A DNA stretch of 64,000 nt from an uncultured Aliarcobacter sp. (GCA_963664305.2 CAXXLV010000001.1:544001-608000); one strand, 5' to 3'. Positions 19,145 through 41,183 are shown, counted from the stretch's first letter. The notes: generated by a model from the letters alone, not told the origin. A program made the numbers and translations.

Positions 19145-20023
19145 ATGAGAATCAATACAAACGTTTCATCTTTAACAGCTCAAGAAGCTGCATCAAACAC
19201 AACTAAAAAAATTACTGGTTCATTAGAAAAACTTTCTACTGGTTTAAGAATTAACAAAGCTTCGGATGATGCTTCTGGTCTTGCTATTGCTGATAAATTA
19301 AGAACTCAAGCTACATCAATTAATCAAGGTATTGCAAATGGTAACTCTGCAGTTTCTTTATTACAAATTGCTGATAAATCAATGGCTGAGCAATCAAACA
19401 TTCTTGATACAATTAAAGCTAAATTAATTCAAGCTAATACAGATACAACTTCTGATGATGGTAAATTATCTATTGCAAAAGATGTTAATAAACTTTTAGA
19501 TCAGTTAAATAATATTGCGAAACAAACAAACTATAATGGTACAACTCTATTACAAAAAAATAGAAACTCTGCTGTTTCTCAAACTGGTTTATCATTCCAA
19601 GTTGGGGAAAACAGAGCAGACACTATTAAAACAGCAAGTATTAACTCTAATACAACTGGTTTAAAATTAACTACACTTAAAAAAGGTGTTAGTGCGGCTG
19701 CTAAAACTACAGCTGGAGCAATTGATACTAACTTTGGTAAAACAATTATTTCTGCTGCACAAAAATTAGTTGATGATGCAATTTCTAAACTAAATGGATA
19801 TAGAGGGGACATGGGTTCTACTCAAAACCAAGTTGAATCTGCTGTTAGAAACTTAATGACTCAAGCTACAAACGTAAGTGCTGCTGAGTCAATTATTAGA
19901 GATGTTGATTATGCACAAGAGTCTGCAAACTTTAATAAACAAAACATTATTTCTCAAGCTGGTTCATATGCAATCAGTCAAGCAAATTCTGTTCAACAAA
20001 ACGTATTAAGATTATTACAATAA
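19145..20023 (+). CDS. flaB: Flagellin (second copy)
   Basis: 292 aa; 10 amino-acid differences from the first copy by manual alignment. Confidence 0.96.
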   Translation: MRINTNVSSLTAQEAASNTTKKITGSLEKLSTGLRINKASDDASGLAIADKLRTQATSINQGIANGNSAVSLLQIADKSMAEQSNILDTIKAKLIQANTDTTSDDGKLSIAKDVNKLLDQLNNIAKQTNYNGTTLLQKNRNSAVSQTGLSFQVGENRADTIKTASINSNTTGLKLTTLKKGVSAAAKTTAGAIDTNFGKTIISAAQKLVDDAISKLNGYRGDMGSTQNQVESAVRNLMTQATNVSAAESIIRDVDYAQESANFNKQNIISQAGSYAISQANSVQQNVLRLLQ

Positions 20024-20034: not shown

Positions 20035-20065
20035 AAAAAGAGTGAGTTTTTCTCACTCTTTTTTT
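20035..20065. terminator. Bidirectional terminator between flagellin 2 and maf
   Basis: AAAAAGAGTGAG-ttttt-CTCACTCTTTTTTT abutting the maf stop codon. Confidence 0.88.
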
Positions 20066-22097
20066 ATATTACTCTTTCTAAGCAAATAATATAATCATTA
20101 GTAATATTTTTCATTTGTTCTATAAAAATTTCTTTTATCTTTTTTACTTTCTTTTTCTCATTTTTAACTTTTAAATCATTGAAATGATATGATAAATATG
20201 GAACAACCATTTGAAAATAATTTGCTAATATTTGGTAAAAAATTGGGCATCTATTTTCTGAAACTTTTTTTGCAAATACGAATATTTCATCAAAGAACTC
20301 ATCATAATTTTCAAAATCTTTATTTTTAATACTATTTAAAATATCTTTTGCTTCGCCATTTAAAAATAATATTTCTCTTCTAAATTCTTTTTTAGACTCT
20401 AGTGATAATTCTGTAAATGAAGTTTCTTCTAGTAAATTAGTAAATTTTATATCTTTTGATTTAAAACTATTAAAATTTTTTATTTCTATCTCTTCTACTT
20501 TTTGAGGAATTGCTCCTTCAAAAAATGCACCATGAGTTGAAAGATTATAAATTATTGTATCTTCACTCTTCTTTGAAATTTTTCCTTCAGCACTTTTAAT
20601 TGAACTATAAAAAATTGGAGTTGTAAAAACTTCTTCTTCAAAATTACCTTTTACTTTTAATAAACTCTCATCAATTATAAAAGTATCTCTTTTTTGTTCT
20701 TTATTTAAATCTATAACCTGAATAAGAGAGTTTGAAGCTTTAGCATGAGATTCACCTGTTTTTTGATTTAAAGCTAAATCAAGTCCTATTAAATATAACT
20801 GCTTAGGATTAAAATTTAATAAAATTGCTAAAGTTATTTCACCAATACTAAAGCCATCAAAAACATTGTTATCCATTTGAAAAGGTGTAAATATTTCAAA
20901 TAAAAATAAATTTTCTTGATTAAATTTTTTTAATACATTTTGATTTGTCATTACAGAAGCTAATATGATAGTTCCCTTACTAATTTTTGATACACTTTCA
21001 TCATCAAATTGTAATTTTTCTAAAATATCACTTTCATCAACAGTTGTTATTACATCAATTTTTATATCATGGGCTAATAATTTTTTATATGCTGCTCCAA
21101 TTGTCACAATAAAAAATTTATCCTGATTTTCTTTGATCCAGTTAATATTTTCATCTAAAGATGGACCCGCTGCAAGATATAAAATTGGTATTTCATTAAA
21201 AATATTTGATTTTTCTTTTATTTTATTTAAATGAATTATTTTATAATCACTATTAAGAACTTTTGATGTTCTATTTGCATGAATATATAACATTCTTACA
21301 TAATCATATGATGTAGGTCTAACAGAATTTAACATACTTAATATGTTATCAATGTATTGATCTATATTTATTCCAGTTGATGAAAATTTAATTAAATAAT
21401 TTTCAATATTGTTTACACTAATAAATTTAGAAATTTTATTTTCTTCATCTACAATATTATCCATTATTGAAAAAATTGCTCCCTTATTTGCAAGGATTGT
21501 ATAATCTACAACAAATAAAGATAATCTAAATATTTCAAGATTTCTTTCAAGAACTAAATACATTTCAGCATCAACTTTTTCCGCAATTCGTGGTATATGT
21601 CGTCCCAATAAAGTTCCTAAAAAAACAAATTTCTTAATTTTTTTTAGTTTCTTTTTCTTATTCTCTAAAAAATCATTTAACGTACTTGAATATTGCCACA
21701 TATTATTATTTGTCATTGATACTGAATCACTTATTTTTTCATGATTAAATCTATTTTCCATATCAACTTCAGAAGAATCTTTTAAAAGAAAGTATTCAGA
21801 AAGACTAAAAATTGCATTGTTTTCATCAAATTGAACTTTTCTTACCATATTATCATTTATTTTTTTAGGATTTTTACCATATAAATATTTATCATTTACA
21901 ATATCATATATATCAAAATCTCCACTTTCCATTATAAAATCTAATACATATTTCTCTTTATAAGTACCATTTACTATCATTTTTGATAGCTCATCTACTT
22001 TTTGATAAAGTTCATTATCATATTCACTCAAGAATACAAGATTTGCTAGAAAAGTGGTTGTTAATGCATTTTGTAGTTGTTTTTCTGCTTCTGTCAT
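20064..22097 (-). CDS. maf: Motility-associated factor (Maf) flagellin glycosyltransferase
   Basis: DUF115/MAF_flag10-like core LAAGPSLDENINWIKENQDKFFIV, LIGLDLA; adjacent to flagellins and nonulosonate genes. Confidence 0.85.
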   Translation of the reverse strand: MTEAEKQLQNALTTTFLANLVFLSEYDNELYQKVDELSKMIVNGTYKEKYVLDFIMESGDFDIYDIVNDKYLYGKNPKKINDNMVRKVQFDENNAIFSLSEYFLLKDSSEVDMENRFNHEKISDSVSMTNNNMWQYSSTLNDFLENKKKKLKKIKKFVFLGTLLGRHIPRIAEKVDAEMYLVLERNLEIFRLSLFVVDYTILANKGAIFSIMDNIVDEENKISKFISVNNIENYLIKFSSTGINIDQYIDNILSMLNSVRPTSYDYVRMLYIHANRTSKVLNSDYKIIHLNKIKEKSNIFNEIPILYLAAGPSLDENINWIKENQDKFFIVTIGAAYKKLLAHDIKIDVITTVDESDILEKLQFDDESVSKISKGTIILASVMTNQNVLKKFNQENLFLFEIFTPFQMDNNVFDGFSIGEITLAILLNFNPKQLYLIGLDLALNQKTGESHAKASNSLIQVIDLNKEQKRDTFIIDESLLKVKGNFEEEVFTTPIFYSSIKSAEGKISKKSEDTIIYNLSTHGAFFEGAIPQKVEEIEIKNFNSFKSKDIKFTNLLEETSFTELSLESKKEFRREILFLNGEAKDILNSIKNKDFENYDEFFDEIFVFAKKVSENRCPIFYQILANYFQMVVPYLSYHFNDLKVKNEKKKVKKIKEIFIEQMKNITNDYIICLERVI

Positions 22098-22108: not shown

Positions 22109-22633
22109 TTATTCAACTATTATATTTTTTATGAAATTAATATCTTTACATTTATATTCAAATTTAGAAATATTTTTAATATCCAATATACTATTATCAA
22201 TCATTATTGTATTTCTTATTTTTGCATTTTTAGCACATTGAATATCTGTTAATTTATCGCCAATCAACCAAGAATTTGGTAAATCTAAATTATAACTTTT
22301 TAAAATATTTTCTATCATTCCCGTTTCTGGTTTTCTACACTTACAATTTTCTGTAGGATGATGAGGACAAAATTCAACTTGAGAAATAAAAATATTCTCT
22401 TTTTCTAATTCATTTATCATCCAATTATTTAATTTTAAAAAATCTTCTTCTGCATAATAACCTCTACCAATACCAGATTGATTAGTAATTATGAATAACA
22501 AATAATCTAAATCTTGAAGATATTTTAAAATATCAAATATTTTTGGAACAAATTCAAAATCACTGATTTTATAAACATAATTTTTATCTATGTTTATCAC
22601 ACCATCTCTGTCTAAAAAAATAGCTTTTTTCAT
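22109..22633 (-). CDS. gmhB: Heptose-1,7-bisphosphate phosphatase (GmhB family)
   Basis: FLDRDGVIN, ITNQSGIGRG, CPH..CKCRKP, IGDK..D. Confidence 0.92.
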   Translation of the reverse strand: MKKAIFLDRDGVINIDKNYVYKISDFEFVPKIFDILKYLQDLDYLLFIITNQSGIGRGYYAEEDFLKLNNWMINELEKENIFISQVEFCPHHPTENCKCRKPETGMIENILKSYNLDLPNSWLIGDKLTDIQCAKNAKIRNTIMIDNSILDIKNISKFEYKCKDINFIKNIIVE

Positions 22634-23337
22634 TTTATTAAATCTAAAATATCTATTTGTGCTTCAGCAAAAGAGTTTATAGTACCAATATCTTTATGAT
22701 AAGTACTATTAAGATAAGTGTTTATTTTACCAAGTAATTTTGGGATTACATCTAAAGAAAAATCAATATTAATTTTATTTAGAGTTTCAAGAAATTCAAA
22801 AATTTCATAATTACAGATATAAACAGCTCCATTTGCTAAATTAGATGGAGGATTTGAAACTTTTTCATAAAATTCTTGAACTATATTATTTTCATCCAGT
22901 TTTACTATTCCACAAGATTGAGGGACATCTGTTCTAAATAACATCATTGTAAGGAGATATTTTTCATTTTTTTTATGAGATTCGATAAATTCTTTGAAAT
23001 TGCAAAAAGATAAATTATCAGCATGAATAAGTAAAAAAGGTTCATCTTTATCAAAAAGATTTTTATTATGAAGTAATGTACCGCCTGTGTTTAACAGCTC
23101 TTTTTCATAAACTAATTTTATTTTATCTCTATAAATACTATTTTTTACAAATTCTTCAACTTTTTCACTAAAATAATGAGTATTTACAATAAATTCTGAT
23201 ACTCCAGCTTTTGATAAATTTTCTAGCCAATATTGAAGTAATGGCTTTCCATTTATTGGTACTAAACATTTAGGTATATTGTTAGTTATTGGTCTTAGTC
23301 TTGTTCCTAATCCAGCACATAATAATAAAGCTTTCAT
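22630..23337 (-). CDS. Sugar-1-phosphate nucleotidyltransferase (HddC/GDP-mannose pyrophosphorylase-like)
   Basis: LLCAGLGTRLRPIT..PKCL, EKELLNTGG, FYEK, ANGAVY, DIGT. Confidence 0.85.
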   Translation of the reverse strand: MKALLLCAGLGTRLRPITNNIPKCLVPINGKPLLQYWLENLSKAGVSEFIVNTHYFSEKVEEFVKNSIYRDKIKLVYEKELLNTGGTLLHNKNLFDKDEPFLLIHADNLSFCNFKEFIESHKKNEKYLLTMMLFRTDVPQSCGIVKLDENNIVQEFYEKVSNPPSNLANGAVYICNYEIFEFLETLNKINIDFSLDVIPKLLGKINTYLNSTYHKDIGTINSFAEAQIDILDLIK

Positions 23338-24762
23338 TTAAAATTGAATCTCTTTTATTAATTCATCTTTTTTTATTGGTATATTTCCAACTCGACTTAC
23401 TTGTATAGCAGCAGCAATTGAACCTAAATATGCACTTTCCCAAATATTTGCTCCAACAACTTTTGCCATTGCAGAACAAGTTAATAAGGAATCACCTGCA
23501 CCACTTACATCTTTAGCATTAGTGTTTAAAGCTTGTATATTATCAGTTAATAATTCATTTTCATTTGAATTATAAATCATTATTCCTTCATTACCTAAAG
23601 TGGTAAAAACATGTTTTGAGTTTGATTTTTTGTGAAGTTTTTCAGATAATACAACTAGACCCGATTCAAAATCATTTATTGATAATCTAATTTCTCGCTC
23701 CGTTGGAGTTACTATATCCATATCTTTAAATTTTGATATATCACCAATTTGAGATGAACTTTGTGAATCAGCAACCATAACTATTGATTTCTTTTTTGCA
23801 TATAATGTTATATTTTCAATAATATTTTTGGTTAAAACTCCATAAGAAAAATCAGAAAAAATTATCAAATCATAATCTTCTAAATCATCAACAAAATTTT
23901 CTAATATTTTTTCTTCTAAATCTTTTGAGATATTATGTTGTTTCAAATGATTTACTCTAAGTAAAGTTTTATTCTGAGCTCTAAATCTTTGTTTTAAAGT
24001 TGTTGGTCTTGTACTATCTTTTAATAAATATGTATTAATTCCTAAAGATGTTAAATAATCATGTGTAAATTCATAATTTTCATCATTTCCTAAAACCGAC
24101 ATATAAGAAACATTTGAACCTAATGTTTTAGCATGTGAAGCAACAATAGCTGCTCCTCCTATAAATTTCTTATTTGAAATTGGAGTTACAACTATTGTGG
24201 GGTCTTCTTGACTCATACCAACAGCATCACAAGTGATATATTCATCAATTATAGTATCTCCAATAACTAAAATATTCAAATCAGAAAATTTATTTATAAA
24301 ATCAATTAATTTTGTTTTATCAATTTTATGTCTTTTTATAAAATTGTTATCATGAGATAAATTTAAAAAACTAATTTCAAAATCTTTTTGAAGTAAATTT
24401 AAAGAAGAAAAACCTATTTCTCCTGATGAAAATAGAATTTTTCCACCATAGGTTTTCATAATCTCTTCTTCAGGATTATATCTATTTTCAAACTCCTTAC
24501 CTTTTATAAGGATATCAGGTTTTTTTCTTTTTATATATTCTAAAACATCTTCATTTAATAAAAAAACTTCATCTACATAGCTCGTTGATTTTATGGATTC
24601 TAATCTAATATCTTCTTCTAATAAATTTGAGTTATTTGCTAATCTATCTGAATTTACACCAACAATTAAATAATCACTACTCTCTTTTGCAAATTTTAGT
24701 AATCTTAAATGTCCTGGATGAAAAATATTAAAATTTCCATAAACAAATGCTACTTTTTTCAA
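23338..24762 (-). CDS. HldE/RfaE-like bifunctional protein: N-terminal cytidylyltransferase-like domain, C-terminal PfkB sugar kinase (TTG start)
   Basis: GNFNIFHPGHLRLL and VGVNSD at N-terminus; IGDTIIDEY, GGAAIVA, SDFSYG, TPTERE, DVSGAGD in C-terminal part. Confidence 0.88.
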   Translation of the reverse strand: MKKVAFVYGNFNIFHPGHLRLLKFAKESSDYLIVGVNSDRLANNSNLLEEDIRLESIKSTSYVDEVFLLNEDVLEYIKRKKPDILIKGKEFENRYNPEEEIMKTYGGKILFSSGEIGFSSLNLLQKDFEISFLNLSHDNNFIKRHKIDKTKLIDFINKFSDLNILVIGDTIIDEYITCDAVGMSQEDPTIVVTPISNKKFIGGAAIVASHAKTLGSNVSYMSVLGNDENYEFTHDYLTSLGINTYLLKDSTRPTTLKQRFRAQNKTLLRVNHLKQHNISKDLEEKILENFVDDLEDYDLIIFSDFSYGVLTKNIIENITLYAKKKSIVMVADSQSSSQIGDISKFKDMDIVTPTEREIRLSINDFESGLVVLSEKLHKKSNSKHVFTTLGNEGIMIYNSNENELLTDNIQALNTNAKDVSGAGDSLLTCSAMAKVVGANIWESAYLGSIAAAIQVSRVGNIPIKKDELIKEIQF

Positions 24763-24773
24763 AATCTTACTCT

Positions 24774-25892
24774 CTATACAAAATTAATATGATTAGGTGG
24801 TGTACCCTTTGGCTCTTCCAGTTTTATATCACCTTTTTTATAGCCATCCAAAAATTCATTTACTTTATGTTGTAAACATAATGAACCACACATTGTTTGA
24901 GCATCAAAATTAGGAGAAGCCAAATGATTCATTACTTCCCAATATCTATCACTATTTACAATATCTTTAAATCTTTGTTGAGTTATATTTCCTATATGAA
25001 ATCTACTATATCTTTCATTAAATAACATACCACATGGTGCAACTAAACCTGAACCAGAAATTTGTATTTGAAATGGTGGACCATAACATCTTTGATAACT
25101 TCTTTTTCCTTCAGTATTTATTTTTGACCATTTAACACTTACTTGATATTCTTCATCACTATAAGATTCTGCTTCTTCTAAAATATGTGTTAATTCTGCA
25201 TATTTAGAATAATCAACACCTAATTTTCCATCTTCACTATCACTTGTATGTTTTACAACTAAATAATCAGGTCTAATTTCTTTTCCAAGTTTAGCTAAAG
25301 GTATAACTTGGTCTGCATCTTCTGGCATTAAAACCATTTGCATACCTATTGTTACATTTAGATTATTTTTTTTCTTAATTTCAACCATATCTTTTATATT
25401 TTGAATTACTTGATGGAAATGTTTTTCTTTTACTCCCATAATTTGTGCATATCTTTCTGGTTCTCCAGCTGATATATTAATTCTTATATAAGTCAAATAC
25501 GGTAAAACTCTTTCTAAAGCTTCATATTTTAGATTAAATCCATGAGTTGCAGATGCCATTGATATACCCAATTGAGCACCTCTAATAATTGTATGTTCAT
25601 AAATTGGTGATAAAGTACTCTCACCATCACTTACAAGGGAAATAGCTTTTACTCCCATCTCTTTACAATCTTCTAAAAATGCATCTATGTGCTCTTTTGT
25701 TATATCAAATCGGTCATTTTCTTGAAGTCTTGCATAACAGAAGTGGCATCCATAATTACAAGCTCTTGTTAGTGCCATATCAATAGTTAGAGGAGCTATT
25801 CTTTCTCCTCTTTCCCACTGCTTGATTCTTTCTTGATGCCAATAAATTTTAGTAGCATCTAATATATATTTATTTTCTTTTTTTGTTTTCAT
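24774..25892 (-). CDS. Radical SAM protein with twitch/SPASM-like C-terminal domain
   Basis: CNYGCHFC; DGES at the GGE position; CYGPP...SGLVAPC...IGNI...CGSLC. Confidence 0.9.
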   Translation of the reverse strand: MKTKKENKYILDATKIYWHQERIKQWERGERIAPLTIDMALTRACNYGCHFCYARLQENDRFDITKEHIDAFLEDCKEMGVKAISLVSDGESTLSPIYEHTIIRGAQLGISMASATHGFNLKYEALERVLPYLTYIRINISAGEPERYAQIMGVKEKHFHQVIQNIKDMVEIKKKNNLNVTIGMQMVLMPEDADQVIPLAKLGKEIRPDYLVVKHTSDSEDGKLGVDYSKYAELTHILEEAESYSDEEYQVSVKWSKINTEGKRSYQRCYGPPFQIQISGSGLVAPCGMLFNERYSRFHIGNITQQRFKDIVNSDRYWEVMNHLASPNFDAQTMCGSLCLQHKVNEFLDGYKKGDIKLEEPKGTPPNHINFV

Positions 25893-26163
25893 CTACTCTA
25901 TCTTTCAAAAGAACAATTACAGGGAAATTCCCTAATTTTTCTCTTATATAATTTTCATATTTAACTAAAAAATCATACACATCTTTTTTATCTACAGAAA
26001 GATTAACTTCTATAGCTTGATTTTTTACACTATTAACATCTAATTTATCTTTAAAAATATCACTATATGAATTTACTATTTCAAATTGTTCATCATAAGA
26101 AAGTTTTTTCCAGGCAATTAATTCTGGAGATTCATATCTTTTATAATTATTTACATCTAACAT
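25870..26163 (-). CDS. Small hypothetical protein (~97 aa; start probably ATG 26163)
   Basis: Fills the gap in the operon and overlaps both neighbours; no recognisable motif. Confidence 0.7.
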   Translation of the reverse strand: MLDVNNYKRYESPELIAWKKLSYDEQFEIVNSYSDIFKDKLDVNSVKNQAIEVNLSVDKKDVYDFLVKYENYIREKLGNFPVIVLLKDRVDENKKRK

Positions 26164-26638
26164 ATACAGGCCCTTCATAATCAAACATTTTTTTTATATC
26201 ATCTTTTAAAGTCTCTTCTGTTGGTGATAATATCAAAAAATTTTTAAATATACTAATCATTTCAAAATCATCATTATCTAAACAATGACTTCTCCCTAAT
26301 TTCTCAAAATAGTTATTTACGCCAACACCAATCAACTTTATATTCATTTTATGTTCATTCAAATCATATCTAATTTGTTCATAAGCTCTCATCACTAAAA
26401 AAGGTATTTGAGAATAAACTATGGGTTTTAGACCTGTTAGATACATTCCAGCACTCATACTAATCATAGCTTGTTCACAAATTCCCACATTAAAAGATCT
26501 ATCACTATGATTATTGAAAAATTTATCTAAAACTGCAAATCCCATGTCTCCAACCAAAAGAGTCATTTTTTCATCATTTTTAAAATATTCATATACTTCT
26601 TTCATAACTTCTTGTTTAGAAACATAATTATTCATCAT
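26147..26638 (-). CDS. Transketolase-like pyrimidine-binding subunit (short)
   Basis: LVGDMG, DRSFNVGICEQAMISMSAG, FLVMRAYEQIRYD, GRSH, GPVYVR. Confidence 0.88.
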   Translation of the reverse strand: MMNNYVSKQEVMKEVYEYFKNDEKMTLLVGDMGFAVLDKFFNNHSDRSFNVGICEQAMISMSAGMYLTGLKPIVYSQIPFLVMRAYEQIRYDLNEHKMNIKLIGVGVNNYFEKLGRSHCLDNDDFEMISIFKNFLILSPTEETLKDDIKKMFDYEGPVYVRCK

Positions 26639-27419
26639 CTTCCTTTAATACAAATCCATCTTCACTAGGGCATCTGTAATGGTATTTGATAGAGTTTTCC
26701 ATAAAGTCTATACCTTTACCTTTAATGGTATCACAAAACATTATAGAAAAACTTTCATTTTTGGCTTTAAAAAATTTGTCAAAACTTTCTCTTAATTGCA
26801 AAACATTATGTCCATCTAATCTAGAAAAACTACATGGGTAAGCTTTTAAAACATTTGCTAATTGATTATTATCTAAACCAACATCTTCAACTCTGTCCAT
26901 AGCTTGCAATTTATTTCCATCAATGATAATCAATAAATTATCTAACTTAAATCTACTAGCAAGTTGAAGAGCCTCAAAATTACTTCCTTCTTGCATTTCA
27001 CCATCACCAACTATACAAACAACTTTATTCTTCTTTTTTTGCATTTTAAAAGATTGTGCCATTCCTACAGCAATTGGTAATCCATGTCCTAAAGAACCAG
27101 TAGATGCTTCTAACATATATTTAGGATTATAAGTTAAACACCCTTTTAAAGAGGAGTTCTTATAAAAACTCTCTATTTCAAAATCAGGAATAATTCCTAA
27201 TTCATTTAATATAACATAATACGAATAGGCACCATGTCCTTTACTAAAAATTAGTCTATCTCTTGTTTCATCAAAAACATTGTTTTTGTCAAAAACTAGA
27301 TATTCATTAAAAAGTATAACTAAAATTTCCAAGCAAGATAAAGAGGGTGCTAAATGCCCTGCTCCAGTATCACATGAAAGTTTTATAGTTTTATGTTTAA
27401 TATCTTCTATATCTAACAT
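26628..27419 (-). CDS. Transketolase-like N-terminal ThDP-binding subunit
   Basis: GHLAPSLS, RDRLIFSKGH, STGSLGHGL, GDGEMQEG...DGN, TIKGKG. Confidence 0.92.
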   Translation of the reverse strand: MLDIEDIKHKTIKLSCDTGAGHLAPSLSCLEILVILFNEYLVFDKNNVFDETRDRLIFSKGHGAYSYYVILNELGIIPDFEIESFYKNSSLKGCLTYNPKYMLEASTGSLGHGLPIAVGMAQSFKMQKKKNKVVCIVGDGEMQEGSNFEALQLASRFKLDNLLIIIDGNKLQAMDRVEDVGLDNNQLANVLKAYPCSFSRLDGHNVLQLRESFDKFFKAKNESFSIMFCDTIKGKGIDFMENSIKYHYRCPSEDGFVLKEDDE

Positions 27420-27420
27420 T

Positions 27421-28404
27421 TTATTTACCTAAATATTTAAACCAATCTTTTGTTGCGGCTTGAATTGATGTTTCATTCCAGATTGGAGCTTCTCTCCACA
27501 TTTCAATATTTTCTAGCATGATTTTTACGCCATCTTCAAAAGAAACTTTTGGATACCAATTTAATAACTCTTTTATTTTAGTAATATCCGCAAATGTACA
27601 ATCAGGCTCACCTGGTCTTTTTGGGATATATACCTTTTCTCCACCTAAAAGTTCAACTAAATAATTTATACTATAAGTATTATCACTTCCAACATTAAAA
27701 ATTTCATTACTAATATTAGATTTTGCAGCAGTATAACATGCATCCACAACATCCGTAACAAAAGTAAAATCTCTTGTTTGTTCTCCATCACCAACAATTG
27801 TTAATGGCTTATTATTTAATAATTGAGCTAAAAATACTCCAAAAACTGCTCCATATGTTCCACTTGTTCGGTGTCTTAATCCATATACATTAAAAAATCT
27901 CATTGAAACTACAGGTATTTTATAAATTTGTCCCCAATGTAAAACATACTCTTCTCCAATTCTTTTTGTATGAGCATATGGATATTCAGGTTTTATTGGT
28001 GAGTTTTCTGGAGTTGGATAAACTTCAGGTATACCATAACATGAGCTTGAAGCTGCATAAACAAATTTTTTCAAGTTTTTCGATTTTTTACTAGCTTCTA
28101 AAATATTAATTGTTCCATCTACATTTGATTTATGATATAACAAAGGATTATTTATTGAAGGTACAATATCAGCCATTGCTGCAAAATGAAAAACATAATC
28201 AACATCTTCAAAATATTCATCAAAATTAATATTATAATCACTTATATCTGCATGAATAAACTTAACTTTTGAATTAGTATTTATATTTTCAATTCTTCCA
28301 TTAGCTAAATTATCTATAATTGTTACTTCAAAATTCTCTTTTATAAGTAAATCTACCATGTGAGAACCGATAAACCCAGCTCCTCCAGTAACGACAGCTT
28401 TCAT
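27421..28404 (-). CDS. NAD-dependent nucleotide-sugar epimerase/dehydratase (extended SDR)
   Basis: TGGAGFIGSH, ASSSCYG, YAHTK (YxxxK), RFFNVYG, GDGEQTRDF. Confidence 0.92.
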   Translation of the reverse strand: MKAVVTGGAGFIGSHMVDLLIKENFEVTIIDNLANGRIENINTNSKVKFIHADISDYNINFDEYFEDVDYVFHFAAMADIVPSINNPLLYHKSNVDGTINILEASKKSKNLKKFVYAASSSCYGIPEVYPTPENSPIKPEYPYAHTKRIGEEYVLHWGQIYKIPVVSMRFFNVYGLRHRTSGTYGAVFGVFLAQLLNNKPLTIVGDGEQTRDFTFVTDVVDACYTAAKSNISNEIFNVGSDNTYSINYLVELLGGEKVYIPKRPGEPDCTFADITKIKELLNWYPKVSFEDGVKIMLENIEMWREAPIWNETSIQAATKDWFKYLGK

Positions 28405-28413
28405 ATATTTCCT

Positions 28414-29508
28414 TTAAATAAAATTATCATGTAAATTAGGATTTTTTAGTCGCCAAAGATATCTATTTACCTCATCCATTCTACAATTTACTCTACAATC
28501 TTTAATATCTAACTCATTCTTTACAAAATTTAAAGATTTTCTTCTTTTTTCACTTTCCCAAATTTCTTTAAAAGTGCTCTGATTTATATTTCCATAACAA
28601 AATTTTTCATCACTTAAATGAGCGCTGCATCCATAAACATCTCCATTTGCAGAAATGTAACCCCAAAAAAATGGTGTTGAATAACATTTCTCATAAGGTT
28701 GTTTTTTTTCTATGTATTTTTTCATTGTATTAATTCTAAATACAACGTTAAATTTTCCATCTGAAATTTTGTCAAGATCATCTTTTATATCTAACATTTT
28801 ACTATAGTCAATATTCTCATATTTTGTTGTTTCACTATATAAATGTTGAGAATATGGTTTTATTACCAGATAATCAACCCCTATTTCTTTACATTTTTTT
28901 GCTAGAACTACAGCTTCATCTTTATTTTCTGGTAAAAGTAACATTTGTACACCTAAAGTACAATTTAATTTATTTTCTTTTCTATATTCATTTGCATAAA
29001 TTAAATTTTCCATTACTCTTTCAAAATCTTTTTCACTTGTTCTATGAATTTCTGAATAAGTTTTTGCTGTTCCGGCATTTAAACTTACCTTTATCCAAGA
29101 ACAATTTTCCATACATTTTTCTATATTCTTTTTATTTAGAGGAACAAAATTTGTTGTTAAAGAAGTATCTATTCCCACTTTACTACAGTGTTCAACAATA
29201 ATATCTAGATTCTTAAATAATAAAGGCTCACCCTCACCTGCAAACATTACACTTTTTACGCCATTTTGGGCCATATTTGTTAGTGTGTTTTTTAATACTT
29301 CATAATCAAGTGATTTTTTATCATATCCCATATAATCTAAACCACAAAAAGTACATCTATGGTTACAACCACCATAAGGTGATATTTCAACATATATTGG
29401 ATAAATTGATTTTTGCTTTTCCCAATCATCTTTTGATTCCAACCACTTAGAAACTCTAGTTGGATGCAAAATAAGTTTATGGGAATCTATTGAATATTCA
29501 TCAGTCAT
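28414..29508 (-). CDS. Radical SAM protein with twitch/SPASM-like C-terminal domain
   Basis: CNHRCTFC; GEGEP; CYSTP...NGDVYGC...YGNI...CRVNC. Confidence 0.92.
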   Translation of the reverse strand: MTDEYSIDSHKLILHPTRVSKWLESKDDWEKQKSIYPIYVEISPYGGCNHRCTFCGLDYMGYDKKSLDYEVLKNTLTNMAQNGVKSVMFAGEGEPLLFKNLDIIVEHCSKVGIDTSLTTNFVPLNKKNIEKCMENCSWIKVSLNAGTAKTYSEIHRTSEKDFERVMENLIYANEYRKENKLNCTLGVQMLLLPENKDEAVVLAKKCKEIGVDYLVIKPYSQHLYSETTKYENIDYSKMLDIKDDLDKISDGKFNVVFRINTMKKYIEKKQPYEKCYSTPFFWGYISANGDVYGCSAHLSDEKFCYGNINQSTFKEIWESEKRRKSLNFVKNELDIKDCRVNCRMDEVNRYLWRLKNPNLHDNFI

Positions 29509-30952
29509 TTTTTTTACTCTCTACTATATTTAATATTTTTTCTACAAATGTTTTATATGTAAAATTTTTAATAAAAGATTCAAATTTTTCACTATTACAT
29601 TCATTAAATACATTTAATAATTCCTCTTTTGATTTATAATAAATCAAAACATCTTCATAATAAGGAGGATTATCCTTTTCTCGACAATCATATAAAATCG
29701 GTTGACAACCACAAGAAATAGCTTCTAAAACTCTTTGTTGTATTATATAATCTGCATGAGGAGCTAAAGTATATTTAGCACTTGAATAAACATCAACTAA
29801 AGCTTGTCCATAAGATAATTCACCTTTATAATAAGCTTTTGTTTGTGGGTATTCTTCCCATCCCCAACCATAAACTTCAATTTCAAATTTTTTTGATAAT
29901 TCACTTTCACATAACCAAATAACACTAAAATCTCTAACGATATATGGAATTACTTTTTGAACTAAGACATCTTTTGAAATAGTATATCTTTCTAATATTG
30001 AATCGATATAAGAATTATTAAACTTCAAACCTTTTTCAAGATGTTCTTTTAATTCATCTATTAAACTTTTTTCTAAATTATATGGTTTTACAATATTTGC
30101 ATAAGATGAACCGATAAATACAATTTTATTCTCTCTTTTAATATCTTTATTTACTTTAAAAATATTATCATTTATTGCAAAATTTTGTCTTTCATATGGT
30201 ATTTCTTTTCTCTCAAAACATTTATCAAAAAAATATGTCAATGAAAAAAAGTATTCTCTTTCTTTCTTTTGATATTTTTCTTCACTCATTATAAAAGGCA
30301 TTGGATCTTGAAACCATGTGATATTAAAAACTTTGTCATTACAAAAAGGAAATACATTATTTATATTTATTACAATATGTGGATTAAAATTATGATATTC
30401 AACAAGTACTGGTAAAAAATCTTGCATAGATTCAAAATCTGTCTCTTCAATAAATAATTTAACTTCATACTTATCATTTTCTTTTAAAACATCATGAATT
30501 GCTTTAGATACATATTGCATAACTGTAGTATATTTAGTAGTTGGGATGAAAATTCTAAGTTTTTCATCATTAAAATCTGGCTCTAGATTTTTATTTTCTA
30601 CTTTATATAATTGTATTAAATTATTTCTATCATTCTTAGCTATTTTTAATATTTCAACCAATTGATCAGTTAATAGTTTAGCTTCCATTGGATTATCAAA
30701 ATCATCATTATAAACAACAACTTTTGATGGTATTCTATATTTAGTAGTATAAAAAAAGTTATAAAAATTTTCTAAAGGAACATATTTACAATTTTCAGGT
30801 AAATTTTCTATTTCTTCATCTGCATTATAATAACATATTTGCTTGCCAAAAATTGTAGGATGACCTATATTAACAAGCTTATTTTGTTTGGCTTCTTCAA
30901 TCGCATCTGATGCATCAAAGAAATAACTATCATTTCCAAATTGATTTTGCAT
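29501..30952 (-). CDS. CgeB-like GT-B glycosyltransferase with unknown N-terminal extension
   Basis: WFQDP, IVFIGS, EVYGWGW, VYSSAK, QRVLEAISCG resemble the CgeB/Glyco_trans_1_2 C-terminal domain. Confidence 0.65.
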   Translation of the reverse strand: MQNQFGNDSYFFDASDAIEEAKQNKLVNIGHPTIFGKQICYYNADEEIENLPENCKYVPLENFYNFFYTTKYRIPSKVVVYNDDFDNPMEAKLLTDQLVEILKIAKNDRNNLIQLYKVENKNLEPDFNDEKLRIFIPTTKYTTVMQYVSKAIHDVLKENDKYEVKLFIEETDFESMQDFLPVLVEYHNFNPHIVININNVFPFCNDKVFNITWFQDPMPFIMSEEKYQKKEREYFFSLTYFFDKCFERKEIPYERQNFAINDNIFKVNKDIKRENKIVFIGSSYANIVKPYNLEKSLIDELKEHLEKGLKFNNSYIDSILERYTISKDVLVQKVIPYIVRDFSVIWLCESELSKKFEIEVYGWGWEEYPQTKAYYKGELSYGQALVDVYSSAKYTLAPHADYIIQQRVLEAISCGCQPILYDCREKDNPPYYEDVLIYYKSKEELLNVFNECNSEKFESFIKNFTYKTFVEKILNIVESKKND

Positions 30953-30953
30953 G

Positions 30954-31526
30954 TTATCCTTTCATTTTAAAATAGCTAAAAATTAAATGATTTATTATAC
31001 TATGAGCATCTTCAACTAAACCATATTCACCATTTTGTGTCTCAAAATGTAATTTTATATCAGATAATTCTTTTAATTTTCCACCATCAAATCCTGTTAA
31101 ACCTATAATTTTACAATTTTGTTCTTTTGCATATTCAACAGCTTTTATAATATTTGCAGAATTGCCACTACAAGAAATTGCAATAATTATATCTTTTGGA
31201 TTCAATATATTTTTTAATTGCATATAAAAAACATTTTCAAATCCTATATCATTTGAAATTGCATATCCAATAGCAGAATTATCAGATAAAGAAATAACCT
31301 TTAAATTTTTAATCTCTCTAATTTTTAATCCTATTGCTAAATCATTTGCCATATGAGATGCAGTTGCTGAACTCCCACCATTACCAATAATATAAATTGT
31401 AGAATCATTTTCTGCATTTAAAAGGATTTTATAAAAATCATCTAAACTCTCTAAATCCATTTTATTAAGTAATTCATTTAATCTAAAAATATAATCTTTT
31501 GCAAAATTTTTAAATTCCATAATCAA
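30954..31526 (-). CDS. gmhA: SIS-domain phosphoheptose isomerase (GmhA family)
   Basis: IGNGGSSATASH, ISND.GFENVF, ISCSGNSANI, TGFDGG, VEDAH. Confidence 0.88.
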   Translation of the reverse strand: MIMEFKNFAKDYIFRLNELLNKMDLESLDDFYKILLNAENDSTIYIIGNGGSSATASHMANDLAIGLKIREIKNLKVISLSDNSAIGYAISNDIGFENVFYMQLKNILNPKDIIIAISCSGNSANIIKAVEYAKEQNCKIIGLTGFDGGKLKELSDIKLHFETQNGEYGLVEDAHSIINHLIFSYFKMKG

Positions 31527-31530: not shown

Positions 31531-32208
31531 TTATAAAGCTAAGTAACACTTAGCTAATTTAAAATCTATCTCTTCATCAATATCTATAGAACTTTTTCTA
31601 TCCATTAAAAAAGCAAAAATATTACTTTTCAAAAAAAAACCTTCATTTTCTAAAAACTTATCTGTTCTACAAATATAAATAGCACCATTAATTCTATAAT
31701 ATTTTTCTAAATCTTGACTTCGTTTATTTAAAACATCATCTCTTAAAAATTTATTCATATTTCCATCTTCTGGTAAAGTATTACTCCAAAGAGGACTATG
31801 TTCCATTTCACATACGCTTACAACTGCATCTGCATTTTTACTTTCAAGTAATTCTATGGCTGCATCTATATGCTTTTCATTACGTAAAGGACTTGTAGCT
31901 TGAAGCAAAACAATATAATCATATTTTTTCATATTATCTATTGTATGCTTAATTGTATCAAAAGTACTAGATGTATCTTCTGCTAATTCATCTGGTCTTT
32001 TAATAGTAATTGCACCATATTTATTTGATATATTTAAAATCTCTTCATCATCACTACTTACAACTACATCATTAATATATTTACTTTTTAATCCGGCTTC
32101 TATACTCCAAGCTATAAGAGGTTTCCCTTCTAAATCTAAAATATTTTTCCTAGGAAGTCTTTTACTTCCTCCACGAGCTGGAATTATTGCCAAAAAAGTT
32201 TTATTCAT
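31531..32208 (-). CDS. neuA: CMP-nonulosonate synthetase (NeuA/LegF family); start probably ATG 32208
   Basis: IIPARGGSKRLPRKN, LQATSPLR, NGAIY, SIDID. Confidence 0.9.
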   Translation of the reverse strand: MNKTFLAIIPARGGSKRLPRKNILDLEGKPLIAWSIEAGLKSKYINDVVVSSDDEEILNISNKYGAITIKRPDELAEDTSSTFDTIKHTIDNMKKYDYIVLLQATSPLRNEKHIDAAIELLESKNADAVVSVCEMEHSPLWSNTLPEDGNMNKFLRDDVLNKRSQDLEKYYRINGAIYICRTDKFLENEGFFLKSNIFAFLMDRKSSIDIDEEIDFKLAKCYLAL

Positions 32209-33253
32209 TAAATATCCTAAAGTATTCACTTTGGGCTTGTTCAAAATCACTCATTCTTCCTATATCTAACCAATATTCATGAATTGGGAAAGATAAAACT
32301 TTTTTTTGTTTTTCTATTAATATATTAAATAATGTTGGCATATCAAAAAATTCATTTTGAGGAATATTTTCAAAAACATTAGGAGAAAGTACATAAATTC
32401 CTGCATTTACAAAGAATTTTTTTATTGGCTTCTCTTCAATTGAAGATATATTTCCATTTTCTATTTCTATAACACCATATGGTATTTGATACTCATACTC
32501 TCTAACACACATAGTTGCAATTGCATTTCCAAAACAATGAAAATCTAATAAATTAGAAAAATTTACATCTGTAAGTAAATCTCCATTCATAACAAAAAAA
32601 GGTTCATTTGGTTGTTGTTGTAAAAGGCTCAATGCTCCTGCTGTTCCCAATCTTGTGTTTTCTTCTACATAATCAATATTTACTCCAAAATCACTACCAT
32701 CTTTGAAATACTCTTTTATCATATCACCTTTATAATTTAGACTTATTGTAATATTTACAAAACCATGAGTTGCAAAATTTTTAATAATAGTTTCTAATAT
32801 AGGTCTATTTCCAACTTTTAACATTGGTTTTGGAGTATCTTCAGTAAGAGGTCTTAAACGTGTTCCTAAACCTCCTGCCATTAAAATTACTCTATTTCTT
32901 TTTTTAGTTACATTTAATAAAGTTGCTAAATTTACAATATCTACTAAATTATTATTCTCATCAATTATAGGTATTTGATATACTTGATTTTTTATAGCTT
33001 TTTGAATAATACTTTCTTTTGTTTCAGAACTATATGCAACTGTAGGATTTTTGAAATATAACTCTTTTATATCATCTTCTAAAGTATAATTTTTTAAAAG
33101 TCCCCTTCTTATATCTCCATCACTAAGTGTTCCTAAAAGTTTGTTATTTTCATCAACAACCAAGGCTATTCTAATTGCACCTTTATCTATGATTTGTAAA
33201 GATTCTTTAATAGTTGTGTTTTCAAAAACAAGTAAATTATTTATATTTTCCAT
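32201..33253 (-). CDS. CBS-domain nucleotidyltransferase (PtmE/LegX-like)
   Basis: N-terminal CBS pair (SDGDIRRGLL) plus MAGGLGTRLRPLT..PKPM, MNGD, WLDIG. Confidence 0.88.
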   Translation of the reverse strand: MENINNLLVFENTTIKESLQIIDKGAIRIALVVDENNKLLGTLSDGDIRRGLLKNYTLEDDIKELYFKNPTVAYSSETKESIIQKAIKNQVYQIPIIDENNNLVDIVNLATLLNVTKKRNRVILMAGGLGTRLRPLTEDTPKPMLKVGNRPILETIIKNFATHGFVNITISLNYKGDMIKEYFKDGSDFGVNIDYVEENTRLGTAGALSLLQQQPNEPFFVMNGDLLTDVNFSNLLDFHCFGNAIATMCVREYEYQIPYGVIEIENGNISSIEEKPIKKFFVNAGIYVLSPNVFENIPQNEFFDMPTLFNILIEKQKKVLSFPIHEYWLDIGRMSDFEQAQSEYFRIFNE

Positions 33254-33254
33254 A

Positions 33255-34412
33255 TTAATCCTTTAAATCATAAAATGTTTTTTTTAATATATTTTCCAAG
33301 TCAACTCTTTTTATTTCTTCAATAATTTTTTTGCTAGCACATCCATCACCATATGGATTTCTAACATTTAACAAACTGTTTTGAAATTCTAAAGAATATA
33401 ATTTCTCAAAAGTTTTTTTTATATCAAATTTATTTGCAGAGCAATCTATAATACTATCAGCTTTTATTCTACCTTTTTGTCTATCACCTATATTTATAGT
33501 TCCTATTTTAAAACTTGGAGCTTCTAAAAGTCCACTTGAACTATTTCCCACTACAGCATCAATAAATTGTAAAGCACTTAAATATCTTAGTTGTCCTAAA
33601 GAAGTGAAGCATATAGATTTATAAGAGTTTTTAGATACATATTCATCAATCATCTGATTTATAACTCTTCCATCTGTATCACTATTTGCTTTTGTAAAAA
33701 TGATATTTGTATCTTCTAATTCATCAATTGCATCTAACAATTGTTGGAATTGTTCTTTTGCTGTAGAATTTTCTAATGTTACAGGATGAAAAGTAACTAA
33801 TATATTTTTTTTATTTAGTTTAAAATCTATAGAATTTTCAAACTCTTCTTTTGTCAGAAGTTTTAATCTTTTGATATTTTCTATTCCCATACCACCAACA
33901 TTAAAAACTCTAGAAGGATGTTCACCTAATTGAATTACTCTATTTCTATACTCTTCTGTTGCAGTAAAATGAAGATGACTCATTTTTGTAATACTATGGC
34001 GAATTGATTCATCAAATGCACCTTCCGTTGTTTCTCCTCCATGAAGATGAACAATTGGGATACGAGCTATCATAGCAGTGCTAACAACACTAAATATCTC
34101 ATATCTATCTCCAAGAACTATCAATATATCTGGTTTTAGTTCTTCAAAAGCTTCACAAAAAGATATTTGAGCTAAACCCATAGATTTTGAAATACCTGTA
34201 GACGTATCAGAAGATAAAAGCATCTCTATTTTTTTATCAATTTTAAACTCTTTTTCTATCTCTTTATAAGTTAATCCAAATTCACTACTTAGGTGCATAC
34301 CTGTAACTATAAGTTGAAGTTGAAAGTCTTTATCAGCTTCTATTTCTTTCATAAGCCAATAAAGAAGTCCATATTCAGCCCTTGTACCAGTGACAACACA
34401 TATTTTTTTCAT
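33255..34412 (-). CDS. neuC: Hydrolysing NDP-sugar 2-epimerase (NeuC/LegG)
   Basis: TGTRAEYGL, LGDRYE, HGGE, TFHPVT, GNSSSG, NPYGDG. Confidence 0.93.
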   Translation of the reverse strand: MKKICVVTGTRAEYGLLYWLMKEIEADKDFQLQLIVTGMHLSSEFGLTYKEIEKEFKIDKKIEMLLSSDTSTGISKSMGLAQISFCEAFEELKPDILIVLGDRYEIFSVVSTAMIARIPIVHLHGGETTEGAFDESIRHSITKMSHLHFTATEEYRNRVIQLGEHPSRVFNVGGMGIENIKRLKLLTKEEFENSIDFKLNKKNILVTFHPVTLENSTAKEQFQQLLDAIDELEDTNIIFTKANSDTDGRVINQMIDEYVSKNSYKSICFTSLGQLRYLSALQFIDAVVGNSSSGLLEAPSFKIGTINIGDRQKGRIKADSIIDCSANKFDIKKTFEKLYSLEFQNSLLNVRNPYGDGCASKKIIEEIKRVDLENILKKTFYDLKD

Positions 34413-35407
34413 ATTAGCTCATCTTCTTTATAATCTTTAGTTGCTATACTTCCTACTATTTCATCCCATAGCATAGGATTTATTCCATTACCTGGTCTTT
34501 TTATTGCAAGATTATTTTCAGATAAAAGTTCACCTTTTTTAATATCCATTTTTGCAACAATTGATTTTCTAGCTATTTGCATATTTGGGATCTCACTAAA
34601 TGATGGTTTTTTAACACAACTTCCCAAAGCCAACTCTATATTTCTTATAGCTTTTACCATCGCTTTTAGTTCATCTGGTTCTAAACTTGCCTTATGGTCT
34701 GGTCCTTCCATAGTTTTATCTAAAGTAAAATGTTTTTCTATACAATAAGCACCCATAGCAACGGCTGCGATATCCACTTCAATACCTAATGTATGGTCAC
34801 TATATCCAAAAGCTATATCAAATGTATTTCCAATAGTCACCATAGCTTTTAAATTCACATCTTCCATAGGTGTTGGATATTCTGTATTTGCATGTAAAAC
34901 TGTTATATTTTCTTTTTTAGTCCCAGCTGCTATCAAAACATCTAAGGCATCTTCAATTTCACCAATATCAGCCATTCCAGTTGAAAGAATTACTTTTTTA
35001 TTTAATTTTCCTATATGTCTTAAATATGGTAAATTTGTGATTTCTCCACTAGGAATTTTAAATATTTCAAGTCCTAAATCATTTAAAAGTTCTATACTAT
35101 CATGGTCAAATGGAGTTGATAAAAACATAATATTTTTAGTTTTACAATAAGCCATAAGCTCTTTATGAGTATCAGAATCTAGTTCAAGTTTTTTTATCAT
35201 ATCAAATTGAGATTCATTTTTATCAGTTGTTTCTTTTTGATAATCAGCTTTTTGAGCATGTTTTGATACAAGTTTTTCAGCCTTAAATGTTTGAAATTTA
35301 ACTGCATCAGCCCCACTCTCACTTGCTACATCAATCAATCTTTTAGCAAGTTCAATTGAACCATTATGATTTACTCCTGCTTCTGCTATTATAAACACTT
35401 TATTCAT
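34409..35407 (-). CDS. neuB: Nonulosonic acid synthase (NeuB/LegI)
   Basis: IAEAGVNHNG, KIPSGE, LSTGM, GYSDHT, IEKHFTLD, C-terminal SAF domain KRPG. Confidence 0.95.
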   Translation of the reverse strand: MNKVFIIAEAGVNHNGSIELAKRLIDVASESGADAVKFQTFKAEKLVSKHAQKADYQKETTDKNESQFDMIKKLELDSDTHKELMAYCKTKNIMFLSTPFDHDSIELLNDLGLEIFKIPSGEITNLPYLRHIGKLNKKVILSTGMADIGEIEDALDVLIAAGTKKENITVLHANTEYPTPMEDVNLKAMVTIGNTFDIAFGYSDHTLGIEVDIAAVAMGAYCIEKHFTLDKTMEGPDHKASLEPDELKAMVKAIRNIELALGSCVKKPSFSEIPNMQIARKSIVAKMDIKKGELLSENNLAIKRPGNGINPMLWDEIVGSIATKDYKEDELI

Positions 35408-39767: not shown

Positions 39768-39776
39768 TACATAAAA

Positions 39777-39898: not shown

Positions 39899-41176
<1,278 letters not shown>

Positions 41177-41183
41177 GTAATAA

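Follow-up and report, generated by a model that had tools for sequence, protein, structure and literature searches.

What do eleven genes make that lie on one strand, almost without gaps, between a flagellin glycosyltransferase gene and a nonulosonate pathway, and which surface structure receives their product? The question is raised by a 64,000-nt sequence from an uncultured Aliarcobacter sp. (GCA_963664305.2 CAXXLV010000001.1:544001-608000), referred to here as the window, in which the eleven open reading frames (ORFs) occupy positions 22109-31526 of the minus strand. They are a real, intact and uncharacterised sugar module, the flagellar-island variant of a widespread cassette. With a probability of roughly 0.55, we read them as a dedicated pathway in which a nucleotide-activated sugar of the heptose type is made, remodelled and built into the flagellin glycan together with the neighbouring legionaminic-acid-type sugar. 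This reading rests on the genes and their domains, on conserved gene order, on distribution, on linkage to nonulosonate and flagellar genes, and on a complementary pattern of presence of one phosphatase gene, gmhB.

An intact module in a Maf-type flagellin glycosylation island

All eleven genes are co-oriented, with intergenic distances of -38 to +11 bases, and the block runs unbroken into maf on one side and into a seven-gene nonulosonate pathway on the other. This is the arrangement that an earlier first-pass annotation of the sequence had described, and the ORF listing, Pfam and NCBIfam bear it out. The genes are listed below in the order of their transcription, followed by their context; the abbreviations are S-adenosylmethionine (SAM), short-chain dehydrogenase/reductase (SDR), nucleoside diphosphate (NDP), pyrophosphate-binding (PP), pyrimidine-binding (Pyr) and haloacid dehalogenase (HAD).

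30954..31526, minus strand: GmhA-like SIS sugar-phosphate isomerase, 190 aa, a divergent paralogue (SIS_2/SIS domains; gmhA model)
29501..30952, minus strand: glycosyltransferase-like protein with a CgeB-type C-terminal domain, 483 aa (PF13524 Glyco_trans_1_2, E 2.8e-8, residues 353-452)
28414..29508, minus strand: radical SAM/SPASM enzyme A, 364 aa (Radical_SAM and SPASM domains)
27421..28404, minus strand: extended SDR, NDP-sugar 4-epimerase-like, 327 aa (Epimerase/GDP_Man_Dehyd domains; GGAGFIG and YAHTK motifs)
26628..27419, minus strand: transketolase PP-domain subunit, 263 aa (Transketolase_N; best PDB match the split-transketolase N chain 6yak, E 5e-39)
26147..26638, minus strand: transketolase Pyr-domain-only subunit, 163 aa (Transket_pyr as sole domain)
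25870..26184, minus strand: 104-aa short form of the radical SAM B partner, C-terminal domain only (homology to partners of 200-440 aa; no Pfam family)
24774..25892, minus strand: radical SAM/SPASM enzyme B, 372 aa, the most conserved cassette gene (Radical_SAM and SPASM domains)
23338..24762, minus strand: reversed HldE-like fusion, 474 aa (CTP_transf_like 7-94, PfkB 163-461)
22630..23337, minus strand: sugar-1-phosphate nucleotidyltransferase, HddC-like, 235 aa (NTP_transferase domain)
22109..22633, minus strand: GmhB-type HAD phosphatase, 174 aa, accessory to the module (TIGR00213; DRDGV motif)
31531..38305, minus strand: context, legionaminic-acid-type nonulosonate pathway (NCBIfam and Pfam; contiguous with the module)
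20064..22097, minus strand: context, Maf-type flagellin glycosyltransferase (MptE-like and Maf_flag10_N domains)
17829..18707 and 19145..20023, plus strand: context, two tandem 292-aa flagellin genes (Flagellin_N and Flagellin_C in both)

Motifs and domains are intact in all ten module genes that have a recognisable family (Pfam, NCBIfam and motif check). The GC content of the module, 0.24-0.28, is the same as that of its flanks, and a recent foreign insertion was dropped as an explanation on this ground. The domain assignments of the first-pass annotation stand, with three amendments: its 'HldE-like' protein has the domains in reversed order, its 'short transketolase C' is a conserved Pyr-only form of 162-163 aa, and its 'small unknown' is a shortened partner of radical SAM enzyme B.

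The flanks show the kind of island. The nonulosonate pathway comprises a CMP-sugar transferase, a CBS-nucleotidyltransferase, NeuC, NeuB, NeuD, a LegC-family aminotransferase and a dehydratase, and four of these exceed their family cut-offs: the LegC-family protein with 571.7 bits (cut-off 420), NeuC with 503.7 (235.9), NeuB with 523 (399.65) and NeuD with 167.8 (160.8). Maf, flagellin genes and an adjacent nonulosonate pathway thus stand together in the window, as they do side by side in the Maf-type flagellin glycosylation islands of Campylobacter, Helicobacter and Aeromonas, and the earlier placement of the module in such an island is supported. A literature search found no description of a radical SAM/transketolase/heptose-type gene set, nor of a Maf island carrying such a module, in agreement with the earlier statement that no characterised flagellin glycan pathway is known to have this set; two incidental matches (PMC7029224, PMC8743553) concern other radical SAM genes in the passages retrieved.

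RNA libraries from three studies contain contigs that match the window at 98-99% identity and span the reversed fusion, radical SAM B and the partner gene (for example, one of 1436 bases over 24525-25959 with 19 differences); other parts of the module have no such cover, and the gaps are given no weight. The contigs hint weakly at transcription of the module, with DNA carry-over possible.

One of two variants of a widespread cassette

The distribution of the module was followed by a pattern scan of one genome per species, which returned 503 relatives among 530 candidate stretches, so that the core of the cassette is present in 503 species genomes. Of these, the 80 best loci were retrieved and typed by tblastn with the proteins of the window and of a SAR116 locus, and the 49 in which radical SAM B has 6 kb or more of sequence on each side form a full-flank subset. 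In 43 of these 49 there is a two-subunit thiamine diphosphate (ThDP) enzyme, which is a split transketolase in 16 and a pyruvate dehydrogenase (PDH) E1 alpha/beta pair in 27, with no locus holding both; among all 80, 16 loci are of the transketolase type and 37 of the E1 type. On gene content, then, the cassette comes in two variants that exclude each other, and the module is one of them. Common to both are radical SAM B with its partner, the 4-epimerase-like SDR, the reversed HldE-like fusion and the GmhA-like isomerase.

Beyond this core the variants part. Radical SAM enzyme A is found in every transketolase-type locus (16/16) and in none of the 37 of the E1 type, which have instead a second SDR and two DegT aminotransferases. 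The E1 alpha and beta subunits score 300 and 277 bits against PDH E1 models, and in the SAR116 locus, the sole E1-type locus to be annotated (L066), the cassette lies beside ABC-2 transporter, GT4 and GT2 genes. Among the 80 loci the transketolase type is limited to Campylobacterota and two Pseudoalteromonas species, across which the order isomerase, glycosyltransferase, radical SAM A, SDR, transketolase PP subunit, Pyr subunit, partner, radical SAM B, reversed fusion and HddC-like transferase recurs; since this order is conserved in 16 other loci, the arrangement in the window is not due to chance. A co-occurrence check across genomes, as proposed in the first-pass annotation, accordingly finds the radical SAM pair and the split transketolase together in 16 of 16 loci, with gmhB near the module in only one (L011). 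Within the Arcobacteraceae the module is a patchy accessory, radical SAM B occurring in 10 of 184 species genomes and 5 of 22 genera, the window's own included. The suggestion that the window holds a new system therefore survives as far as 'uncharacterised' goes and has to be softened as far as 'unique' goes, because the core recurs in 503 species genomes and a related region of Coxiella burnetii comes with genetic data.

That region is the C. burnetii O-antigen locus, and the following is taken from the passages of the cited papers that were available. The domains of CBU0678 are reported to be arranged unconventionally, in reversed order, and its function is stated to be unknown; its gene forms an operon with an epimerase gene (cbu0676) and an epimerase/dehydratase gene (cbu0677), with a phosphoheptose isomerase gene (cbu0674) close by, and its truncation converts full-length lipopolysaccharide (LPS) into an intermediate form, so that the gene is needed for full-length O-antigen (PMC5843353). 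A 2026 review calls cbu0678 essential for phase I LPS and for the production of virenose (PMC13552124). The PDH-type genes CBU_0686, 0692 and 0693, numbered near cbu0674-0678, are reported as horizontally acquired (PMC5423948), and CBU_0686 is placed in the LPS region (PMC5554327). By published description, the likeness to our cassette thus extends over a reversed HldE-like protein, a phosphoheptose isomerase, two SDRs and stand-alone PDH-type genes. The Coxiella region differs in being an O-antigen locus and not a flagellar one, in having a ThDP enzyme of the E1 type, and in that a radical SAM gene is not mentioned in those passages. The genetics of cbu0678 are the sole genetics that bear on the cassette, and they would do so by analogy, through domain architecture as described.

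A proposed route for making and tailoring the sugar

The first half of the proposed pathway is drawn from family likeness. The GmhA-like isomerase would convert a ketose phosphate into an aldose phosphate, the PfkB half of the reversed fusion would phosphorylate C1, GmhB would take off the distal phosphate, and either the N-terminal half of the fusion or the HddC-like enzyme would form the NDP-sugar. This is the logic of the NDP-heptose pathways (GmhA, HldE and GmhB for ADP-heptose; GmhA, HddA, GmhB and HddC for GDP-heptose), with which the module shares isomerase, PfkB-type kinase, HAD phosphatase and nucleotidyltransferase, and whose gmhA, rfaE domain I and II, GmhB and HddC models are the closest hidden Markov model families of the module proteins. 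It departs from them by two added radical SAM enzymes, a ThDP enzyme and an SDR, by the reversed fusion, and by relatives that keep canonical copies as well; neither HldD nor HddA was seen among the module genes. The earlier idea of a dedicated module that joins heptose-route logic to radical and ThDP chemistry is in this respect supported by the domains.

The likeness is a distant one for most of these proteins. The isomerase reaches 108.9 bits against the gmhA model TIGR00441 (cut-off 209.45). The fusion, in which the nucleotidyltransferase is N-terminal and the PfkB kinase C-terminal, the reverse of HldE, has 215.6 bits against rfaE_dom_I (345) and 69.9 against rfaE_dom_II (181.5); an HxGH motif is present in its transferase domain, and the best PDB match of its kinase half is heptose-7-phosphate kinase (4e84, E 3e-23). 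The HddC-like protein, whose gene is found in 16 of 16 transketolase-type loci, has 98.6 bits against the HddC model NF049965 (300), with other sugar-1-phosphate transferase models scoring equally well or better. GmhB alone among the heptose-route proteins of the module exceeds a curated family cut-off (TIGR00213, 162.8 bits, cut-off 149.6), while falling short of NF050049 (190.5, cut-off 250); its DRDGV (DxDG) motif and its C-x-H...C-x-C loop are present.

The distribution of gmhB gives a further clue. In a profile search that covered all but 8000 bases of the 99.96% complete genome, the sole matches to the gmhA, rfaE-kinase and GmhB models were the module's own genes. In five of five module-bearing relatives, housekeeping HldE (363-384 bits), GmhB (185-192) and GmhA (207-239) are encoded elsewhere in the genome, and all five also retain divergent module copies of the kinase (211-215 bits) and the isomerase (99-114 bits), while gmhB is missing from the three of their modules that were inspected (L003, L004, L020). 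Because gmhB is supplied by the module here and from elsewhere in the relatives, whereas the divergent isomerase and kinase are always kept, we infer that the pathway needs a GmhB-type dephosphorylation, and so passes through a sugar bisphosphate, and that neither the module's isomerase nor its kinase can be exchanged for housekeeping GmhA or HldE.

In the second half of the pathway the 4-epimerase-like SDR and the twitch-type radical SAM enzymes would oxidise, epimerise or deoxygenate the sugar and thereby create a carbonyl, to which the minimal transketolase, consisting of PP and Pyr domains, would add a two-carbon unit, giving a branched or chain-extended sugar. The nearest solved relatives of the SDR are UDP-Glc, UDP-GlcA and UDP-GlcNAc 4-epimerases (4zrm, 6zl6, WbpP), which proceed via a 4-keto intermediate, and its orthologues occur with 55-61% identity in E1-type cassettes of other phyla. 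In four Sulfurimonas/Arcobacteraceae loci (L006, L007, L019, L020) this SDR is missing from its usual place and a different SDR (23-31% identity) stands between the transketolase Pyr subunit and the partner gene.

The transketolase keeps its ThDP motif (GDGEMQEG...DGN at residue 138) and its catalytic Glu, with GICEQ aligned to GIAEQ of 6yaj. In the alignment with the C chain 6yaj, which has 341 residues, its Pyr subunit covers residues 37-190 and stops at the border of the Pyr and C domains. Instead of the three-domain PP/Pyr/C architecture there is a pair of subunits, Pfam detecting no Transketolase_C domain in any module gene, and the score against the transketolase model NF004559 is 182 bits (cut-off 488). 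With lengths of 163 and 162 aa in the Sulfuricurvum and Pseudoalteromonas relatives, the Pyr-only subunit is, by sequence comparison, a conserved form and not a local truncation. We had considered that it and the 104-aa ORF might be halves of a broken C-terminal subunit; this was rejected, as relatives keep the 162-163-aa form and the ORF belongs to another conserved family.

Two-carbon branching of NDP-keto-sugars by ThDP enzymes is carried out by YerE in the yersiniose pathway and by E1-like pairs such as AviB1/AviB2. Set beside these by description, the cassettes are alike in having a stand-alone ThDP enzyme in a sugar pathway without E2 or E3, the sister cassettes even using E1 alpha/beta. 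They differ in that the enzyme here is a transketolase-family PP and Pyr pair lacking the C-terminal domain, for which the donor would be of the glycolaldehyde rather than the acetyl type.

Both radical SAM enzymes combine a CX3CX2C motif (CNYGCHFC and CNHRCTFC) with a C-terminal auxiliary-cluster domain (PF13186 SPASM in both), and so belong to the SPASM/twitch type. Enzyme A, with CX3CX2C at residue 48 and C-terminal cysteines at 275, 294, 304, 338 and 342, is 31% identical to enzyme B, and its best PDB sequence match is DesII (E 9e-7). Enzyme B is 66-78% identical across Campylobacterota, Alpha- and Gammaproteobacteria, Planctomycetota, Elusimicrobiota, Nitrospinota, Chloroflexota and others. 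Its invariant cysteines are 45, 49 and 52 plus 269, 287, 335 and 339; on our reading, the four C-terminal ones would be enough for one auxiliary cluster rather than two. An AlphaFold2 model of enzyme B (mean predicted local distance difference test, pLDDT, of 76) has DesII as best fold match (E 7e-14; template modelling, TM, score 0.63). Since this nearest solved fold acts on a TDP-sugar, the match supports a role of enzyme B in sugar chemistry. DesII, BtrN and AprD4-type sugar enzymes share the radical SAM core with both module enzymes, DesII being the best match of both (of B by fold, of A by sequence). They differ at an identity of 14-16% and a TM score of about 0.6, with peptide maturases nearly as good, and we know of no enzyme of this type that needs an IscU-fold partner. 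The relatives of enzyme B bear only generic names in the source databases, the PDB sequence search gave weak generic matches alone for both enzymes, and a protein atlas returned nothing for enzyme B except unnamed radical SAM clusters.

Two observations on these families may be recorded here. One atlas cluster near enzyme B (score 0.99, 101 members) is 78% viral (Uroviricota), and the family may be encoded by phages as well. Under the name of the eukaryote Anaeramoeba flamelloides there is a sequence (P0130) that is 78% identical to enzyme A over its full length; it probably derives from an associated bacterium, not from the amoeba.

Radical SAM B would act in complex with the small partner encoded just upstream. 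A gene that ends just before radical SAM B and carries a C-terminal D-x-N-x-x-R motif is present in 59 of the 80 loci, and in 41 of the 49 with full flanks, the tail usually reading ...E-x-x-K-D-x-N-x-I-R-R-L. In the window the 104-aa ORF overlaps the start of enzyme B by 23 bases and retains the motif; similar short forms of 92-104 aa are found in seven other loci (L003-L007, L019, L020). The K-D-x-N-x-x-R-R tail might have been a by-product of a ribosome-binding site, an idea that we rejected: in L058 the tail lies about 50 bases before the next start codon, and it is therefore a feature of the protein. The full-length partners, of 200-440 aa, are mutually homologous and match no Pfam family even at E up to 10. 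Their profile gave in the PDB only a hint of NifU (E 0.22), and against 1.84 billion proteins 967 cluster representatives at E<=0.001, of which 503 at E<=1e-30. In an AlphaFold2 model of the 241-aa Sulfuricurvum partner (L014; pLDDT 90), the N-terminal half adopts the IscU/NifU/SufU fold (Foldseek probability 1.0, E from 6e-4, TM score to target 0.56-0.68). The three cluster-binding cysteines of IscU are not conserved in the partner family.

The predicted complex of this partner with its radical SAM B (ESMFold2) supports binding between the two. It scored 0.82, with the best of three controls at 0.01, and the mark was reached in a benchmark by 116 of 157 solved complexes and by 2 of 215 mismatched pairs, a calibration that is roughly valid here, where our own alignments were used. 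Contact agreement among the runs was at least 66%, and the pLDDT of the partner at least 79.

At which point would the two carbons be added? The first-pass annotation had pointed to the octose of lincomycin, and the lincosamide route (LmbR/N/P/K/O) is indeed the analogy for chain extension. A transketolase that acts first would make a ketose phosphate, e.g. octulose 8-phosphate, which leads to an NDP-octose that the radical SAM enzymes and the SDR tailor afterwards. Such an order would account for an isomerase and a kinase that are divergent and below their family cut-offs, and the retention of these copies beside housekeeping GmhA and HldE in five of five relatives points to a substrate that is not one of the normal heptose phosphates. 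The sister cassettes speak otherwise, however: their ThDP enzyme is a PDH-E1 pair, the two types never co-occur, and an aldose phosphate extended by a pyruvate-derived two-carbon unit would become a 1-deoxy-ketose that an aldose-ketose isomerase could not use. The module's eleven genes also encode no transaldolase domain, the carbon-transfer enzyme being of the transketolase family, and in that enzyme the THAG, GEDG and GHP residues of 6yaj/6yak are replaced. The lincomycin-like proposal is weakened by all of this, and we consider it unlikely. As transketolase and E1 pair interchange around the same core, and the product of the E1 type would be unfit for the isomerase, late addition to a sugar carbonyl is clearly favoured over early extension among the readings in which the module makes a sugar of its own.

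More tentatively, and at rather less than even odds, we propose that radical SAM B, its IscU-fold partner and a stand-alone ThDP enzyme constitute an unrecognised route to carbon-branched or chain-extended sugars from a precursor of the NDP-heptose type. The radical enzyme would make a carbonyl at an unactivated position, and the ThDP enzyme would add two carbons to it, of the glycolaldehyde type in the transketolase variant and of the acetyl type in the E1 variant.

Flagellin or another surface glycan

The last step, transfer of the product, would fall to the CgeB-like glycosyltransferase. This protein has no NCBIfam match, and a homologue (27-75% identity) is found in 12 of 16 transketolase-type loci. 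That it places the product on the Maf-installed nonulosonate is a putative assignment from co-location, the glycosyltransferase being present in 12 and nonulosonate genes in 13 of the 16. The latter linkage is tight in this variant: neuB or a CMP-transferase gene is found no more than 10 kb away in 13 of the 16 loci of the transketolase type, and neuB in only 3 of 37 of the E1 type. In Pseudoalteromonas luteoviolacea the module has neuB, an FkbM methyltransferase gene and a CMP-transferase gene on one side, and maf, fliS, fliD, flaG and two flagellin genes on the other. The association of the module with a Maf island exists in two phyla.

The tight link to nonulosonate genes also admits a reading with no separate sugar: the module would make a substituent of the legionaminic-acid-type sugar itself, or attach it, e.g. 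by radical or ThDP chemistry on a CMP-nonulosonate or its precursors. Flagellin nonulosonates do carry varied substituents. A full set of isomerase, kinase, phosphatase and nucleotidyltransferase, with a glycosyltransferase besides, is nonetheless hard to explain without a second activated sugar, and the same core recurs in the 37 E1-type loci, so rarely near neuB; of the alternatives considered here, this seems to us the least probable.

A second alternative accepts the sugar and moves it to lipooligosaccharide or capsule, the position in the island being a matter of genomic neighbourhood. The module contains the only GmhA/HldE/GmhB-type genes found in the genome, the SAR116 relative sits among ABC-2 transporter, GT4 and GT2 genes of a polysaccharide locus, and the relative in C. 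burnetii is, in the passages seen, an O-antigen gene (PMC5843353). The placement of the module, wedged on one strand and nearly gapless between maf and the nonulosonate genes, argues the other way, as do the P. luteoviolacea island and the nonulosonate genes of the other transketolase-type loci, and a domain search of 16535-38305 found no lipid-carrier transferase, flippase or ABC exporter. A destination in lipooligosaccharide or capsule is accordingly improbable in our view, about as much so as early chain extension.

A flagellin sugar made from a heptose-type precursor remains the preferred reading, and the following points weigh against it. Within 10 kb of the transketolase-type loci, maf is found in only 4 of 16 and a flagellin gene in only 3 of 16. 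In Malaciobacter halophilus the neighbours of the module are recA and genes of sulfate activation, and flagellar genes are absent from the part of the locus seen, which also favours the lipooligosaccharide or capsule alternative, and E1-type relatives are placed in ABC-transporter/glycosyltransferase polysaccharide loci. A housekeeping heptose operon might still lie within the 8000 bases outside the profile search. The sub-cut-off scores of isomerase, kinase and HddC-like protein may mean that the starting sugar is not sedoheptulose 7-phosphate, and the presence of two nucleotidyltransferases in one module is left unexplained. In the transketolase pair the canonical GHP is GCL (His to Cys, compared with 6yak), THAG is GVGV and GEDG is EKLG (compared with 6yaj), replacing residues that we take to be those contacting substrate hydroxyls and phosphate in E. 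coli transketolase; because these and the C-terminal domain are missing, the pair may do something other than two-carbon transfer. The match of radical SAM B to the DesII fold is modest, and the peptide-modifying SkfB, SuiB and PqqE score nearly as well. Finally, the complex was modelled for the Sulfuricurvum pair and not for that of the window, and its most confident contacts (partner residues 108-116) lie in the IscU-like domain, which is absent from the window's 104-aa form.

The M. halophilus locus is of interest in its own right. Upstream of radical SAM A (L005 100-6377) it has a third radical SAM gene, a 305-aa ORF and genes for a DegT aminotransferase and adenosine 5'-phosphosulfate (APS) kinase, with TauE, ATP sulfurylase and a pyruvate-kinase-barrel protein as further additions; this gene content suggests that the variant may yield a sulfated product. 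At L005 13347-20866 it shares with the window the flank on the side of recA, the module there lying in the opposite orientation to recA and among other neighbours. In the window (38718-47029) the island adjoins recA-eno, followed by a Na/H exchanger gene, a BioB-like radical SAM gene, a metallophosphoesterase gene and topA. The glycosylation island appears to be variable and to occupy a conserved site in the chromosome.

Other neighbours deserve mention. The two flagellin genes are of equal length and short for flagellins, and each holds a 77-aa antisense ORF; because the lengths are the same and this ORF sits at the same relative position in both, comparison of the two genes indicates a recent tandem duplication. 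Further along, a 644-aa protein that consists almost wholly of ankyrin repeats (12914-14848, minus strand; Ank_2, E 5e-61) is encoded beside a Suv3-like DEXQ helicase (14908-16479), both unusual in a bacterial genome.

The glycans on flagellin influence motility, recognition by the immune system and the attachment of phages, and few of their rarer sugars are known. The module brings together two very strongly conserved radical SAM enzymes, a minimal transketolase and a cysteine-poor IscU-fold partner outside any described family, a combination without assigned chemistry that recurs across many phyla in flagellar and polysaccharide loci. Carriers that are cultured and harmless, such as Malaciobacter halophilus DSM 18005 and Pseudoalteromonas luteoviolacea ATCC 29581, make the question directly testable. 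Were the product identified, a new sugar would gain a name and several large protein families that now lack annotation would gain functions; the result would also be relevant to the O-antigen region of C. burnetii, which is important genetically and unexplained biochemically. If the reading of ThDP and radical branching is true, the flagellin of this Aliarcobacter carries an undescribed monosaccharide, and the cassette of 503 genomes represents a family of unknown bacterial surface sugars.

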